From assembly GCA_026134085.1 (NCBI GenBank), contig JAOQIN010000008.1, positions 1-56,890 of the forward strand: 56,890 bases of DNA, read 5' to 3'. Made by a program: the position numbers and the translations under genes. This document shows, piece after piece, positions 1,459-56,890 of the stretch; positions within the stretch are counted from its first letter, which is position 1, and each line of letters starts with the position of its first letter. The notes under the pieces were generated by a model. It did no database searches, was not told the origin of the DNA, and saw nothing but the letters and a program-made list of their open reading frames with translations. This DNA comes from Candidatus Methanoxibalbensis ujae. GTDB lineage: Archaea; Halobacteriota; Syntropharchaeia; Alkanophagales; Methanospirareceae.

Positions 1459-1463
1459 AGGAA

Positions 1464-1538
1464 TGCTCCGGCCGGGATTTGAACCCGGGTCTTCGGCTCG
1501 AAAGGCCGGAATGATTGGCCGGGCTACACCACCGGAGC
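1464..1538 (-). tRNA. tRNA-Glu (TTC)
   Basis: Reverse complement GCTCCGGTGGTGTAGCCCGGCCAATCATTCCGGC-CTTTCGA-GCCGAAGACCCGGGTTCAAATCCCGGCCGGAGCA folds as a cloverleaf with GTTCAAATC T-loop. Confidence 0.95.
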
Positions 1539-1593
1539 ATCTCTCTTTTTTCAATTAAAAAAGGAATGAGAGTGCAGGCGCGGTCTCTGAAAA

Positions 1594-1965
1594 TCAGCCG
1601 AACAGTGCTGCGAGACCCGCCATACCCTCTTCTTCCTTCTTCTCCTCTTCCTCCTCTTCCTTCTTCTCCTCCTTCTTCGCCTCTGCCGCAGGTGCTTTTG
1701 CTGGAGCTTCTGCTGGAGCTTCTGCTGGAGCTGCTGGCACTGCCTGTGCTGCTTGTACTGCTGGAGCTGCTGGAGCTGCTGCGAAAGCGGGCTGAGCCTG
1801 AGATATGGCTTCATCTATGTTCACGCCGTCCAACGCACTGATAAGCACTTTCACACGCCCCCTGTCAACCTGAATGCCTGCTGCCTCAAGCACCGCCGAG
1901 ACCTTCTCCTCAGTTATCTCCGCTCCAGCACTGTGCAAGAGCAAAACAGCATATATGTATTCCAT
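1594..1965 (-). CDS. rpl12: 50S ribosomal stalk protein L12 (aP1)
   Basis: [14 protein letters not shown] start, Ala/Pro hinge, acidic tail ending GLAALFG; GGAGG Shine-Dalgarno upstream. Confidence 0.97.
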
Positions 1966-2756: not shown

Positions 2757-3326
2757 ATGAGACCTCTCACACCTCCTTCACTGAGAGAGCGACGCAGATA
2801 TATCGTGTTTGAGATCATATACGAAGAGCACAGAAAAAAGCACGAGAAGCACGAGAAAAAAAATCAAGAATCTGAAAAAGAGAGAGAAAACAGAGAAGAA
2901 AAAGCGGAGAAAGAGGAAATAAAGGAGAAAAAGGAAACAAAAGAGGAGAAAAAAAAGGTAAAAAAGGTAAAAAAGGAAAGAGAGGAGGAAGGAAAGGGAG
3001 AAAAAGGAGAAGAGAGCAAAATAAAAGACGAGGAGGGAATAAGCGAGAGAGCACTGTTGCGGGCGATATGGGATGCGTTGTATTCACTTTATGGTGATAT
3101 TGGCGTAAGTGAGTGTGGCATTTGGCTCATTGATTATGATGAAAAAAGGGGAGTGGGAATTTTACGATGCACTCATACGAAAGTTGAAGCTGTAAGGGCT
3201 GCGCTTGCATGCATACACATGATAAACGGAAGGCGCACATGCATCAGGGGCGTGGTCACATCAGGCACTATAAAAGCAGCAAGGAGGCGCAGCACGCGAA
3301 TTAAGCCATTTCGCTTCAGGAGCTGA
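2757..3326 (+). CDS. rnp2: RNase P protein Pop5 (Rpp14/Pop5 family) with a ~68-aa Lys/Glu insertion
   Basis: PPSLRERRRYIVFEI...LYGDIG...GILRC...TSGTIKAAR. Confidence 0.9.
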   Translation: MRPLTPPSLRERRRYIVFEIIYEEHRKKHEKHEKKNQESEKERENREEKAEKEEIKEKKETKEEKKKVKKVKKEREEEGKGEKGEESKIKDEEGISERALLRAIWDALYSLYGDIGVSECGIWLIDYDEKRGVGILRCTHTKVEAVRAALACIHMINGRRTCIRGVVTSGTIKAARRRSTRIKPFRFRS

Positions 3327-51399: not shown

Positions 51400-52155
51400 T
51401 CACCAATGTAAAAATACTGCGAATAGGAGGAAAAGCATACACAGAACATAATCCACAGCACGCATGTTGAAATTTGATAGTGTTTTAATCTCGCTGGAAT
51501 ACCCCCTTGAGAGCATGGCCTCGTAAACACGCTCTGAACGCTCTGAACATCTCACAAAAAGCATTCCCAGAGCCTTCCCAATCGCCTTCAATGAATGCAT
51601 TTTCGCCTCCATCCTGAATCCTCTCGCCTGCATTGCAGTGAGCATCCTCTCAATCTCATCCGAAAACACAAATGCATAGCGATATGAAAGCATGAGAATC
51701 TGTGTCAAGGGCTTTGGGAAGCGGAGTGAATTTAATGCTTTTATTATATCATCAAATCTGGTGGTTGAAACGAGTAAAAACGCGAGAATCAGCGCAGAAA
51801 ATGCCCTTAATACGATCAGAACACCCTCATATAAGCCCTCATATGTCACAGTTATAATATAAAATCTGAACAAAGCCTCCCCCGGAACTGTTAATGAGAG
51901 GGCTATAAAAATAAAAATGATGAAAACAGATGGAAACATAAGCTTTCTGAGTGTGAAGCGAAGGGGTATTTTTGAGATTATCAGAAGGACAAGTGATACT
52001 GCGAGGCATAGCGCTGTTGTTCTGATGTCAGATAAAAAAACAACTGAAAAGATGAGTGAGATGAAAGAAATTATTTTCGCTCTCGGATCAAATCGGTGAA
52101 TATATGAGTTCAGAGCAGTGTATTTATCAACATCCCGCATCATTTCATTCACCAT
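51400..52155 (-). CDS. cbiQ: ECF transporter T component CbiQ/NikQ
   Basis: IH..DPR.K, YRY..VF..E, ARG and SRG motifs. Confidence 0.92.
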   Translation of the reverse strand: MVNEMMRDVDKYTALNSYIHRFDPRAKIISFISLIFSVVFLSDIRTTALCLAVSLVLLIISKIPLRFTLRKLMFPSVFIIFIFIALSLTVPGEALFRFYIITVTYEGLYEGVLIVLRAFSALILAFLLVSTTRFDDIIKALNSLRFPKPLTQILMLSYRYAFVFSDEIERMLTAMQARGFRMEAKMHSLKAIGKALGMLFVRCSERSERVYEAMLSRGYSSEIKTLSNFNMRAVDYVLCMLFLLFAVFLHW

Positions 52156-52228
52156 CCCCGTCTTCTGTTGGTTGATCTGTGCAAACAGCAATGGCCCAAG
52201 CCAAAGCAGAAGCAAACCACAGCCGCAG

Positions 52229-52723
52229 TCATGCTTCTTTTGTTGCTTTCCTGCTTTTATACAACATCGCGATGCCTGCGATACCCATAAGGTAGCCGAA
52301 TCCCGCGAGAATTCTCATCGGAAGACCAATCGCTCCTTCAGCAGAGGAATCACTGTATCCTCCGCTCAGGTTCAGCAGTGTTTCAGCTTGATGTCCCGGC
52401 AGGTTTGCCTTAACAACGATTTTGTATGTTTTGACACCTGTCTCCGGCGAAAATCTGAATTTTCCGTTCTCGTCTGTTTTGCCTGTCACATAGAGGTTGC
52501 CCCTGTCGTCATACACCTCGACATCAGCATACCTGCACGGCGTCTCTCCTCCGACACCACCAAAATATGCATAAACCTCTATGTCAGCTATCCTGTGCAC
52601 AACATAGATGCGATGAGCTGATGCAATTCCAAAACAGAACAGCAGGAAAAACATGAACACAACAATCACAATCACACATCCTCTCCTCATCTCTCTCCTC
52701 TCTCCCATATCACGCATCCTCAC
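52229..52723 (-). CDS. NikL/CbiL-like accessory component
   Basis: Signal peptide ending AH, G.TDENG.F.F, GH, C-terminal G.GY..GI.G TM; located between cbiM and cbiQ. Confidence 0.7.
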   Translation of the reverse strand: MRMRDMGERREMRRGCVIVIVVFMFFLLFCFGIASAHRIYVVHRIADIEVYAYFGGVGGETPCRYADVEVYDDRGNLYVTGKTDENGKFRFSPETGVKTYKIVVKANLPGHQAETLLNLSGGYSDSSAEGAIGLPMRILAGFGYLMGIAGIAMLYKSRKATKEA

Positions 52724-52730
52724 ATCTCTC

Positions 52731-53387
52731 TCATGCAGTTGCTCTCGCTATTGCGAGAAGTTCGGGTTTTACCTGAAGCAGGAAAACAACGACAGAGCCT
52801 GTGATGATCGCCTCTATCACGACCAACGGAGCATGAGCTGCCAGAAGTATAATTGCAGCATCGTGATATATGGGACTTCCCTTAATGAGATCGGTCATAA
52901 TGAGAGAGACTGATGTGAGCAAAGCGGCAAGAGCAACTGCGATTCCGCCTGAAAGTCCACTTACAACTGCGATAAGCGATTCTTTTTCTGCATTGTGCAG
53001 TCTTCCTTTCACGATCTTTGAGATGCCATATGCCACGAGCGCTGGAATGCCCATGTTAACGGTGTTTATACCTATTGTTGAGATACCTCCGTGCTGGAAG
53101 AGGAACGCCTGAAGGACGAGCCCGATGAATATGGAGGGGAATGAGAGGACACCCAGGACAATGCCGACGACACCGTTCAATATGAGATGAACAGATGACG
53201 GGCCGACGGGAATGTGAATGAGTGATGCGACAAAGAACGCGGCGGTCATTAAAGAAAGGCGGGGCATCTCATCTGCAAGCTCGGTGTATCTGCTGCTCCA
53301 CCAGAATGAGAACGCAATTATCCCCGCACTGAGTATCCAACCTGCAACGACGACCTCAGGTGATAGCACACCATCTGATATATGCAC
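52731..53387 (-). CDS. cbiM: ECF S component CbiM/NikM (GTG start giving MHISDG)
   Basis: HISDGVL, AAFFVASLIH.P.GPSSVH, LQA.LF.HGG...IG.N. Confidence 0.92.
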   Translation of the reverse strand: MHISDGVLSPEVVVAGWILSAGIIAFSFWWSSRYTELADEMPRLSLMTAAFFVASLIHIPVGPSSVHLILNGVVGIVLGVLSFPSIFIGLVLQAFLFQHGGISTIGINTVNMGIPALVAYGISKIVKGRLHNAEKESLIAVVSGLSGGIAVALAALLTSVSLIMTDLIKGSPIYHDAAIILLAAHAPLVVIEAIITGSVVVFLLQVKPELLAIARATA

Positions 53388-53463
53388 CATTCATGCACAC
53401 CTTCCCGCATCTTTCATACGGCCCAACCGTCAGCTCTGCACTATGCACTGCAAGCATGCTCGC

Positions 53464-54447
53464 TCATTTGCCTTTGCCTCTGTCGCCCATGCGCTTTCTC
53501 CACAGAAATAGAGCGATGCCTATCACAGTCATAGCAGATATCGCGTCAAATCCTGGCACTTTTCCCGTTATATTCGCGATTTTCTCATTCAACGTGGATA
53601 TTTTGTCCTCAATAATCTCAATCCTGCTCCTCAGCTCTCCTCCGATATCTCCTGAAGGAAACGCATCCAACACAGGAACGATGAACACTCCTCGCCTGTC
53701 CAGACCCTCCTCCTCTTTTGTCACACCGATGAACCATATGCCTGGCTCGTCAAGCGTGTAGAAAAACTCTCCGTCATCGCCTGTCTTCGCAACTCTCGTG
53801 AAAATCATGGGAGGATCCTCGGGAAATCTCTCCTCAACCCTTCTGACAAGCGTATCTGCGATTTCTTTGGTGTTATATTTCTCAACCTCAACGATCGCAT
53901 TTGCGAGCGGCTCTCCATTGAACAGCGCTTTTCCACCGAATATGAAGGATTCCTCCATGCCATATGGTCGCATGAAAGGAACGATCTCCACTTCCTGACC
54001 GACAATGGCATCCCAACCCTTCCATGCTTCCTCACCGCAGTGAATGACTGTTTTGGGATAATCAACGAGCTCATGCTCCTCAACCTCAAGCCTTGCGAAC
54101 ACGACATAATCGCCAAGCTCATCAACAGTGAACGATGTCTCATATGCCTTAACGCCCTCAACAGTTGTCTCATGCACCGCTAAATCCTCAACAGTCCCAT
54201 CCGGCTTTCTCACCTTTACCTCTGGCACAACAGGACAGTCAAACAGCTGATGCTCATACGGATGCCCCCACACAATCAGTATGTCCTTCGTGTCTCCAAC
54301 ACTTGCGATGAAATCATCATGCGTCACATTCATATCACCGCCGGGAAACAGCATGGTGAAATGTGCACTCCCAACGCCCACCATCATACAAAGTATGCCT
54401 ATGATGAGCGACAGCTCAGCTGCTGATTTGACACTTTTCCTCACCAT
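53464..54447 (-). CDS. DUF4198 (NikK-like) extracellular protein with PGF-CTERM sorting signal
   Basis: Signal peptide ending AHF, WGHP, EIVP..RPYG, G.P..NA.VEVE.YN, G.W; VPGF-TM-RKR. Confidence 0.82.
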   Translation of the reverse strand: MVRKSVKSAAELSLIIGILCMMVGVGSAHFTMLFPGGDMNVTHDDFIASVGDTKDILIVWGHPYEHQLFDCPVVPEVKVRKPDGTVEDLAVHETTVEGVKAYETSFTVDELGDYVVFARLEVEEHELVDYPKTVIHCGEEAWKGWDAIVGQEVEIVPFMRPYGMEESFIFGGKALFNGEPLANAIVEVEKYNTKEIADTLVRRVEERFPEDPPMIFTRVAKTGDDGEFFYTLDEPGIWFIGVTKEEEGLDRRGVFIVPVLDAFPSGDIGGELRSRIEIIEDKISTLNEKIANITGKVPGFDAISAMTVIGIALFLWRKRMGDRGKGK

Positions 54448-54479
54448 CTTTTTATCACCTTCCAACTGATCGGGAAATT

Positions 54480-54497
54480 CGTATAAATAAATATACG
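54480..54497. promoter_or_regulatory. Palindrome CGTATA-N6-TATACG upstream of the Ni/Co ECF operon
   Basis: Perfect 6-bp inverted repeat ~25 bp downstream (minus strand) of a TTTTATAT TATA-like box. Confidence 0.4.
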
Positions 54498-54579
54498 CTT
54501 TTTGCCGAACGGAAATAAATAAATATAAAAATGAGGAGGGGTCAGGAGCTCTTCTCTTCTCTGCCACATGCATGTGCGG

Positions 54580-55515
54580 TCATTCAGGAAATCGCTCGGC
54601 GAGCAATTTGGCTGCTGATGCGGCTTTTGCGAGAAGAAGGGGGATGCTCTCCTTTGTATATATGCATGCGTTGAGTGCGAGGCTGAGTGCTCTGGCATGT
54701 GCGTCCTGAATTACCGTGTGTATTGTCTTTCTCGTCGGATAGTTTGCGTTGAGTGCGAGATTCACAGCGTTCATCTCCGCTTCAGCGAGCAAGCTTGATA
54801 CTGTTAAATTCGTCGGATATTCATATCTCATGTTAAAAGCAATGTTGAAAGCATGTTCGGCGCATTTTAGCACATCTTCAATCAACTCCTCCGGCTTCGT
54901 CCGCAGCACATCAGGCAGGAACAGCACACCGGCTTCGCGGTCGTATATCGCCTGAATCTGCAGACCCTCCTCCATCGGATATATTCCGAGCTTCGCAAGC
55001 ACATCCGCAACCTCCCGTGACACAACTTCTCCCTCTCTCACAACAACCGTCTGTTTTTTTATGACAATATTTCCGCCCTCAATTCCGGCAGGTATGCCCG
55101 CCCGCTGAAGCTCTCCAATAATCGGTCCGGGTTTGAGAGATGTCCTTCCCGCCTCCACGACAATGTCTCTCGGCGAACGAACACCTGCCTTTATCGGTGC
55201 AGGCTTCTTGCTGCGCTCTATAAGGTCATAGAGCTCAAAAGGATCAAGATTTGAGAAGACAAGCGCTGTCTGATCCGCCACACACGGAATCATATCATCA
55301 ACACCGCTTTCCTTCAGCGATAGGTGTATCAGGCTGTTCTTTGAAACACGAATGAGACATTTGTCCCTCAAATCACGCCTTATCTGCTGAAATGGCTTTG
55401 ACCGCAAACCCCTGAAGTTGACAGTCGCAACAGTCCGATATGTGTTGAGGAGCTGCTTTAATCGCTCCACTTCCTCCCGCTTCCTCTCCCTGGCTCTTTT
55501 CTTCCCACTGCCCAT
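54580..55515 (-). CDS. rplP0: 50S ribosomal protein uL10 (P0), atypical C-terminus
   Basis: Q.IRRDLR, VSKN.L, P.DIVV..G.T...PGP...ELQ..GIPA.I..G, YPT repeats. Confidence 0.95.
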   Translation of the reverse strand: MGSGKKRARERKREEVERLKQLLNTYRTVATVNFRGLRSKPFQQIRRDLRDKCLIRVSKNSLIHLSLKESGVDDMIPCVADQTALVFSNLDPFELYDLIERSKKPAPIKAGVRSPRDIVVEAGRTSLKPGPIIGELQRAGIPAGIEGGNIVIKKQTVVVREGEVVSREVADVLAKLGIYPMEEGLQIQAIYDREAGVLFLPDVLRTKPEELIEDVLKCAEHAFNIAFNMRYEYPTNLTVSSLLAEAEMNAVNLALNANYPTRKTIHTVIQDAHARALSLALNACIYTKESIPLLLAKAASAAKLLAERFPE

Positions 55516-55612
55516 ATCATATCACCTCATATATCACCCCTCATATGAAAACGAGAAAACGACGACTCCGTGTCGCACTTCAGCACATCCGGTATCGTTG
55601 TCCGCGGCACCC

Positions 55613-56245
55613 CTAACGCATCCAGATCCTGACAGCCTTTCCCATTGTGGTCTTCACATATATTGAGCCTATGTTCTGCCAGCCCTTTTCAAGATTCGCC
55701 TCAATCGCTCTTATGACTGCGTATGCGTTCTCCGCGATCTCACGCGGCGACATGTTCTCGTTTCCCACCTTCACCCAGATAGTATTTGACTTTGATCTTA
55801 TCTTCACTGTCCGCTTCAAACGCTCAATGACCTTCGCTGGATCTGCTGAAGGCGGTATGGGCTCTGGCATCTTGTCCCTCGGACCGAATATGACACCAAG
55901 TGACCTTCCTATCTGCGGCATTAGCTCAGCGGATGCGATGAGGAAATCATATTCTGATGCTATTTTACGCGCTTTCTTTTTGTCAGTTTTTTTGAGTTCC
56001 TCCTCCTCTATCACATCAGCACCTGCCTCCTTTGCCTTCAACGCGAGCTCCCCCTTCGCAAATGCGCCTATATTCATATCCTTTGGCGGATGAGGAAGGA
56101 GGACACGCAGGTTCAACCTGTTCTTCGGCTGTTTTAAGTCTATGTCCTTCAGATTTATCACAATATCAACACTCTCCACAAATCTCCGAGGTTTCCTGCT
56201 CTCCAATGCCTTTTTCACTGCTTCTTCTATCTCTTCCACCTCCAT
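55613..56245 (-). CDS. rpl1: 50S ribosomal protein uL1
   Basis: R.F.ESVDI.INLK, MP.IGR.LG...GPR.KMP, YVKTTMG. Confidence 0.97.
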   Translation of the reverse strand: MEVEEIEEAVKKALESRKPRRFVESVDIVINLKDIDLKQPKNRLNLRVLLPHPPKDMNIGAFAKGELALKAKEAGADVIEEEELKKTDKKKARKIASEYDFLIASAELMPQIGRSLGVIFGPRDKMPEPIPPSADPAKVIERLKRTVKIRSKSNTIWVKVGNENMSPREIAENAYAVIRAIEANLEKGWQNIGSIYVKTTMGKAVRIWMR

Positions 56246-56296
56246 ATCCTCACACCTCCTTCATCAAAGCTCTCCATTTCCGATTCGCATCCCATA

Positions 56297-56590
56297 TTAT
56301 TCGGCGAGAATGTCATCATATTTTCCCTCATCTATCTCGCGCTGAACCTCCACTGGATCCCTGTTCTCAACGCGTATGCCCATTGATTTGCATGTGCCTA
56401 TCACCTCTTTCGCTGCTTTTTTGAGAGAGATTGCCAGCATCTGCTCCTTTTTAATCTCCGCTATCTTCTTCACGCTCTCCATTGATATTGAAAGAGATTG
56501 TGCAATATCCGGCGTTATTTTCTCCACATTGAGCTCACGCTTTATAAGCATAGCAGTCGATTCTGTTGCCTTCTTCCCTTCACTTGACAT
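56297..56590 (-). CDS. rpl11: 50S ribosomal protein uL11, C-terminal rRNA-binding domain only (97 aa)
   Basis: LIKREL, KIA..K...L...LK.AAKEVIGTC.SMG..VE..DP......ID.G.YD; SD GGAGGTG upstream; first gene of rpl11-rpl1-rplP0. Confidence 0.88.
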   Translation of the reverse strand: MSSEGKKATESTAMLIKRELNVEKITPDIAQSLSISMESVKKIAEIKKEQMLAISLKKAAKEVIGTCKSMGIRVENRDPVEVQREIDEGKYDDILAE

Positions 56591-56890
56591 CTATCGCACC
56601 TCCTTTCGGATTTTTCTCACACGCATCTTCACACTTTCTCACACACATCTTCACACCTGCTCCACATCAGCTTTAAAACATAATAAAGCCCCTCCTCCCC
56701 ATTAAAACATAAATGTTGCTTATAAAGAAAAAATGAAACGGAACGGATGAAAACGAGGAATCTGCCACCGGAGAGTGAGAAGGGGGAGTTGGAAGATAGT
56801 GATTTAAGATGATTTTAATATTGAAGCAGAAAGAAAATAGTTTTGAGAGTGCGAGCCATGCCCATAATATTTCTAATTACAAGAATTGAA

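Follow-up and report, generated by a model that had tools for sequence, protein, structure and literature searches.

The window, a stretch of 56,890 nucleotides of the Candidatus Methanoxibalbensis ujae genome, contains two sets of genes for the ribosomal stalk and its base, both transcribed leftwards (Table 1). Close to the right end lies a cluster in the order uL11, uL1 and uL10/P0, with P0 situated 3′ of the other two, and at the opposite end of the same contig, 52.6 kb from the cluster, lies the gene for the stalk protein aP1 (L12). P0 is encoded by the only L10 gene of the genome (1.99 Mb in 86 contigs, a draft that is 89% complete), and its two domains score 85.2 bits (PF00466, cut-off 22.8) and 60.8 bits (PF17777, cut-off 29.1). 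Among solved structures its best match is the P0 of Pyrococcus horikoshii (3a1y_G, E 2.9e-58, residues 9–279). In a Foldseek search of the PDB the N-terminal fold resembles M. jannaschii P0 fragments (E 3.9e-22) and 3a1y_G appears only at rank 45 with an rmsd of 10.4 Å; the spine geometry of the lone-chain model is not comparable, and this search confirms the N-terminal fold alone.

aP1 is the sole Ribosomal_60s match in the genome, aligned to positions 1–73 of PF00428, and its sequence is that of a normal P1, with a predicted dimerization domain, an Ala/Pro hinge and a tail. The gene stands alone in the region 1463–1965 (minus strand), with its own AT-rich and promoter-like upstream sequence and a tRNA-Glu directly behind it. 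At the other end of the window, an AT-rich spacer follows the TGA codon of P0 and leads to an unrelated DUF4198 gene; this is part of a downstream cluster (51400–54447, minus strand) that encodes the DUF4198 protein with its signal and anchor segments, CbiM, a small secreted protein and CbiQ, and which probably serves in the uptake of cobalt or nickel. The P0 gene is covered by contigs of four runs from four other studies, with no indel in 54580–55515 among the differences listed, to which 14 further substitutions are to be added, and a single 7.9-kb contig from another study spans the whole of 54300–56887.

Table 1. Stalk-related genes, and the domains and spine units of P0, in the window.
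Feature	Coordinates	Strand	Remarks
uL10/P0 gene	54580..55515	-	ORF of 311 aa including TGA stop at 54580-54582; Pfam L10 and insertion domain
rRNA-binding N-terminal domain, residues 8-102	55210..55494	-	PF00466, E 3.5e-24
Archaeal/eukaryotic P0 insertion domain, residues 109-178	54982..55191	-	PF17777, E 1.2e-16
Spine unit u1, residues 209-235	54811..54891	-	Helix I counterpart; 2 extra residues before YPT; predicted helix 208-232
Spine unit u2, residues 236-261	54733..54810	-	Inserted unit, ends in second YPT; predicted helix 236-256
Spine unit u3, residues 262-287	54655..54732	-	Helix II counterpart; predicted helix 262-285
Spine unit u4, residues 288-311	54583..54654	-	Helix III counterpart; predicted helix 290-308; stop immediately after
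uL1 gene, immediately 5′ of P0	55613..56245	-	PF00687, E 4.7e-56
uL11 gene, 97 aa	56297..56590	-	C-terminal RNA-binding domain only; PF00298; first gene of uL11-uL1-P0 cluster
aP1 (L12) stalk gene, 123 aa	1594..1965	-	PF00428, E 1.2e-12

The uL11 gene at the head of the cluster is shortened, and the N-domain (PF03946) is found neither in the genome (89% complete) at E ≤ 10 nor at the start of the adjoining contig (first 1.6 kb); a search of 60 other genomes of the order likewise failed to find it in 7. In the closest relative uL11 is full-length, and the DNA lying 5′ of the part common to both (56591–56890 in the window) is unrelated; the same junction is seen in contigs assembled by other studies. 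C-domain-only uL11 proteins, of 93 and 95 residues, are encoded as well in two genomes from a different genus (96% and 93% complete; L049 3182–3463 and L050 50–337), where the genes have different neighbors, and one of them starts 12 nt after a different neighboring gene. We note two tandem 22-base units with one mismatch, seen by eye at 56613–56656 (minus strand) just 5′ of the shortened gene, where the pair is flanked by a TTTATAA box on one side and a GGAGGTG ribosome-binding-like site on the other. Elsewhere in the window, 2757–3326 (plus strand) encodes the RNase P protein Rpp14/Pop5, for which the 104-position Pfam model is stretched over residues 14–178 because of a Lys/Glu-rich insert of about 70 residues.

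The last 103 residues of P0 (209–311) consist of four helical units of about 26 residues each, identical to the strings quoted in the first-pass annotation of this DNA. AlphaFold2, run with a 61-row alignment, likewise predicts four spine helices (limits in Table 1), with a mean pLDDT of 81.6 over P0 and values of 57–74 in 10-residue blocks of the spine, which represents modest confidence there. The additional unit is evident in a MAFFT L-INS-i alignment of 23 P0 proteins, where seven sequences of ANME-1 and its sister family fill 28 columns that are gapped in all 16 three-helix P0s, the latter drawn from other families of the class, Methanoperedens-like and Methanosarcinales-like groups, and further representatives. 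The first-pass annotation had counted four units, not three, and the absence of an insertion of about 26 residues from such an alignment had been named beforehand as refuting that count; the insertion is present, is 26–28 residues long, and brings with it a second YPT loop. A linear HMMER alignment to the Pyrococcus P0 masks it, because the repeats can slide on each other.

Counting the units with a profile is less dependable. An HMM built from ANME-type units finds four matches in the query P0 (16.9, 29.4, 29.9 and 13.5 bits), a result that is circular for this protein, and three in three-unit outgroup P0s. It undercounts divergent helices, returning one to three matches in proteins in which three units can be seen by eye, it overlooked the fourth unit in both P0101 and P0222, and it gave a spurious upstream match in P0184. 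The key claims therefore rest on alignment and length.

The reading frame closes directly behind the fourth unit, three residues past the last predicted helix, and the protein has neither a hinge nor an acidic tail, as noted at the first pass. Pfam finds no Ribosomal_60s tail (PF00428) in the P0 protein, and no acidic or LFG-type peptide is found downstream of the stop in any frame. Read-through of the TGA into the same-frame ORF 53464–54573 was considered as a source of a tail and rejected, since the spacer is AT-rich and promoter-like and the next gene encodes the unrelated DUF4198 protein.

This four-unit, tailless P0 is real and is found throughout its clade. A protein database search yields 345 matches at E ≤ 1e-10, and among the 120 matches listed there are at least 89 clusters of 300–335 aa, tailless and alignable over all four units. 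Methanophagales, ANME-1, Ca. Methanospirareceae and Ca. Alkanophagales are among the names given for their sources, and the nearest named cluster among the matches listed, at 70% identity, contains Ca. Methanospirare jalkutatii. Within the class, 67 of 79 genomes have a P0 match. Those of the organism's own family (the window's genome apart) reach query residue 304 or further in 52 of 54 cases, the P0s of the remaining two genomes (G028 and G009) being cut short, and both matches in the sister family of the same order extend equally far; none of the ten matches in the other four families of the class goes beyond residue 291. The architecture first described from the one sequence thus recurs in the related genomes surveyed. 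Among named species-representative genomes, four units and no tail are seen in all 15 complete ANME-1-type loci, with a sixteenth running off its contig, and none of 64 other named loci has four matches to the unit HMM, which undercounts.

Other four-unit spines can be recognized by eye. In P0101 and P0389–P0394, from Methanosarcinales MAGs, the fourth unit is a tandem copy of helix III together with its linker, and P0s of the P0101 type retain the hinge and tail. P0222, a metagenome protein of 313 aa, has four units and no tail.

The history of the extra unit can be approached from outside and from within the spine. A tree of uL1 and P0 residues 1–205, from which the spine is excluded, unites the own family and the sister family in one clade (support 99/95), and places a tailless three-helix family as nearest sister of this four-helix clade (support 90/92, unstarred). 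Because both four-helix families fall in a single clade, one origin suffices for the extra unit, which would have arisen once, on the stem of ANME-1 and its Alkanophaga-like sister family. The sources of the four units were then compared half by half, using the mean BLOSUM62 score per position between 90 four-unit and 18 three-unit proteins. Unit u1 best matches outgroup helix I in both halves, and the best match of u3 is outgroup helix II (0.47 identity); u4 overall ties helices II and III (1.09 each), its back half alone being nearest to III. Unit u2 is composite, with a front half scoring 0.92 against helix II and −0.50 against helix I, and a back half scoring 2.15 against helix I and 0.92 against helix II. 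Most likely, u2 is a hybrid of a helix II front and a helix I back, generated when two copies crossed over unequally, helix II of the first with helix I of the second, to give the order I – (II front/I back) – II – III. The second YPT loop would be present because the back half of u2 derives from helix I in the crossing-over product. The original proposal that one YPT unit had been duplicated is thus right in that there is an extra unit with a second YPT, but a hybrid of helices II and I fits the scores of the halves better than does a plain copy.

The loss of the tail appears to be a different event. A characterized archaeal stalk carries seven tails, of which P1 supplies six and P0 the seventh (PMC7768734), and the P0 tail is described as dispensable when P1/P2 are present (PMC3616719). 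In one family of the class P0 is canonical, with a hinge and tail behind its three helices; in three other families P0 has three helices and no tail of its own. As the family that branches next to the four-helix clade is tailless and has three helices, the loss of the tail looks older than the extra unit, and on this tree it probably preceded the gain of the unit and is separable from it. The canonical tail is also missing in 13 of 61 complete P0s at named loci of other archaea, and tailless loci include MAGs labelled Thermoplasmatota, Methanocellales, Aenigmatarchaeota and Undinarchaeales. A tail regex applied to 148 library representatives divides them into 50 with a tail and 98 without, in a set that includes fragments and cut gene calls and that supports only the statement that tailless P0s are not rare. 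The existence of tailless three-helix P0s means that tail loss needs no compensation, and that six-tail stalks are evidently viable. The suggestion that an extra L12 dimer replaces the lost P0 tail is weakened by these proteins, both those of the three sister families and those of the other archaeal loci; such a replacement is possible, and is not needed.

The position of the P1 gene also varies within the class. In the ANME-1 family P1 and P0 are on different contigs in 45 of the 45 genomes with both found; outside this family P1 is directly behind P0 in all 12 P0-bearing genomes of the class, and in the sister families it adjoins P0 or shares one open frame with it. Three sister families show the latter arrangement, in the genomes G002, G069, G070, G071 and G075. 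Uninterrupted frames of this kind have 387–426 aa and join a P0 with three or four helices and no tail of its own to a complete P1 (e.g. L037 2528–3805, plus strand, and L042 2887–4047, minus strand; also L040, L043, L044, L085 and L094). Two of the fused frames were tested with Pfam and contain L10, the insertion domain and a full Ribosomal_60s, and a GTG or ATG is found at the usual P1 start inside the fused frames; in NCBI, Ca. Alkanophaga volatiphilum has an 'L10' of 424 aa. As judged from their sequences, these open frames are natural fusions, through which P0 would acquire a hinge and tail in a different way.

Whether the four units are P1 docking sites can be judged against the solved archaeal complex, in which helix residues −5, −2, +2 and +5 contact α1 of both P1 chains (PMC3616719). 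These correspond to unit positions 8, 11, 15 and 18, as mapped by a hand count back from YPT, and every one of the four units, in the query as in 90 aligned sequences, has residues there in the order hydrophobic, small, small, hydrophobic. In u2 the query has L/A/A/L, and the counts over the 90 sequences are L66/I20/V3/F1, A89/S1, S70/A18 and L72/V14, the other units being alike; Ser rather than Ala is therefore usual at +2 of u2, and Ser is found at this position of outgroup helix II in 7 of 18 sequences. Mean pairwise identities are 0.63 for u1, 0.66 for u2, 0.69 for u3 and 0.54 for u4, so that u2 is conserved on a par with u1 and u3, and u4 is the least conserved.

A complex of P0 residues 228–292, representing u2 and u3 only, with four copies of P1 residues 1–60 was predicted with a score of 0.47, which is graded as weak support, the best of three controls scoring 0.00. 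At least 87% of contacts recur between runs, with a partner pLDDT of at least 74, and the output names no individual contacts. In the calibration 116 of 157 solved complexes passed, as did 2 of 215 mismatched pairs, and those passing at a score of 0.60 or below comprise only 18 of the 157 solved complexes and both of the mismatches; the prediction used custom alignments and multiple copies, unlike the calibration. We also note that a like complex (3A1Y) is already solved, and the score may reflect memory of it. Taken with the contact positions, the P0 of ANME-1 likely has four competent P1 docking sites, and the four-site reading is well supported at the level of sequence.

The reading that we favor, with moderate confidence, is that the sole ANME-1 uL10/P0 anchor carries four docking units, the extra one a hybrid of single origin, and forms a stalk of composition P0(P1)8. 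Each unit would dock a single aP1 homodimer by its four customary contact residues, and the assembled stalk would present eight identical factor-recruiting tails, all of them from P1, since P0 itself lacks both hinge and tail. The location of the P1 gene outside the uL11-uL1-P0 cluster, behind its promoter-like upstream sequence, could allow P1 to be made in large excess over P0, so that a ratio of 8:1 would be feasible. Bacteria offer a precedent for such a stalk, as bacterial L10 takes two to four L12 dimers, with eight L12 copies mostly in cyanobacteria (PMC12179292).

The number of sites is not the number of dimers bound. Mesophilic archaea with a three-helix P0 are described with both pentameric and heptameric stalks (PMC5310722), from which it follows that site number does not equal occupancy. 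The same precedent of occupancy below site number (PMC5310722) lends some weight to an alternative that we regard as unlikely yet worth serious consideration, namely that the spine is longer and carries at most three P1 dimers, with u2 or u4 acting as a spacer or lever that alters the reach or geometry of the stalk, or being filled part of the time. The complex prediction score, graded as weak, is compatible with this, as are the lower conservation of u4 and the predominance of Ser at +2 of u2. However, the four contact positions are kept in all four units and u2 is conserved like u1 and u3, and a pure spacer needs neither the helix II/I contact pattern nor a second YPT loop.

It is considerably less probable that the additional helix binds some protein besides aP1, for example another stalk-associated factor, and so constitutes a new binding platform. 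The one hint in this direction is that the GTPase center is otherwise remodelled, with a tailless P0 and a uL11 without its N-domain here and in two relatives. Nevertheless, u2 is made of the halves of two P1-binding helices and retains their contact pattern, no candidate gene is linked to P0, whose neighbors are uL1 and the DUF4198/CbiM/CbiQ cluster, and there is one Ribosomal_60s gene per genome. Lastly, an assembly or gene-calling artefact, or a decaying P0 that lost its tail by a frameshift or contig error, can be rejected as extremely improbable in spite of the draft state of the genome and the shortness of the adjacent uL11, since the same length and end recur in the 52 family genomes and the protein clusters noted above, the contigs of four other studies have no P0 indel among the differences listed, and this is the only L10 gene in the genome with no tail-like peptide downstream or in other frames.

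The P0 of this clade thus exceeds that of every archaeon studied by one docking helix, and lacks a factor-binding tail. A nonameric stalk, P0(P1)8, is plausible in ANME-1 on the strength of the conserved units, and the ribosomes of ANME-1 and its closest relatives may hold eight stalk proteins as compared with the six known. How many translation factors a ribosome can keep close to its GTPase center depends on its complement of stalk proteins, and in bacteria a high L12 copy number accompanies slow growth. A broader reading, to which we would give a little under an even chance, is that the ANME-1 and Alkanophaga-like lineages have the largest stalk known outside bacteria, P0(P1)8 with all tails from P1, within a wider remodelling of the GTPase center that could be tied to extremely slow, energy-limited growth. 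Such remodelling of the GTPase-associated center in the class would encompass the tailless P0, the P0–P1 fusions of sister lineages, the displacement of P1 from the operon, and the absence of the N-domain from some uL11 proteins.

If this is correct, it would be the first expansion of an archaeal stalk, and one that extends across a whole order of uncultured and globally important methane and alkane oxidizers; a four-site anchor that lacks a tail would also be a natural experiment on the importance of P0's own tail. As presented in PMC7768734, the archaeal stalk has a fixed complement of six P1 and the tail of P0, and the variation up to eight described in PMC12179292 is that of the unrelated bacterial L12. 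In the open-access full-text literature, a scope that leaves most subscription journals outside, we found nothing that links ANME-1 to the ribosomal stalk or to uL10, and no stalk termed 'nonameric'.

Comparison with known systems shows where this P0 belongs and where it departs. First, it resembles the P0 of the P. horikoshii aP0(aP1)6 stalk (PDB 3A1Y), with which it shares the family, the N-domain, the insertion domain, the type of spine helix and the YPT loop, as well as the contact positions −5/−2/+2/+5 and an aP1 partner with a normal tail. The P. horikoshii protein has three helices, compared to four here with the 28-column insertion, and a stalk of its type has seven tails, six plus one (PMC7768734), whereas the stalk proposed here would have eight, all from P1, on a P0 without hinge or tail. 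The P1 gene here is not adjacent to that of P0, unlike its counterpart in P. horikoshii.

Secondly, the bacterial stalk anchor is also without a factor-binding tail. The likeness to bacterial L10(L12)8 extends to the way in which copy number is raised, by extra dimer-docking segments on the C-terminal helix of the anchor (PMC12179292), but the docking segments and the dimer fold are different, and the resemblance is a parallel rather than membership; aP1 has little similarity to L12 and may lack an evolutionary link to it (PMC7768734, PMC3616719). Thirdly, the eukaryotic P0(P1–P2)2 stalk has a homologous P0 with the same kind of spine helices, contact pattern and YPT loop (PMC3616719), although it has two helices and binds heterodimers, in contrast to the four helices and single P1 gene here. 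Fourthly, the tailless three-helix P0s of the sister families, Thermoplasmatota, DPANN and other MAGs resemble this protein in the absence of hinge and tail, stopping immediately behind the last of their three spine helices at a total of 274–299 aa; those of the sister families have P1 adjoining or in frame, as opposed to four helices and a distant P1 in ANME-1. Finally, the P0s of 377–384 aa in Methanosarcinales MAGs (the P0101 cluster) share a fourth spine unit, but it is a tandem copy of helix III in a protein that keeps its hinge and tail, and represents an independent event; as that fourth unit has another origin, the spine has been extended more than once in the archaea.
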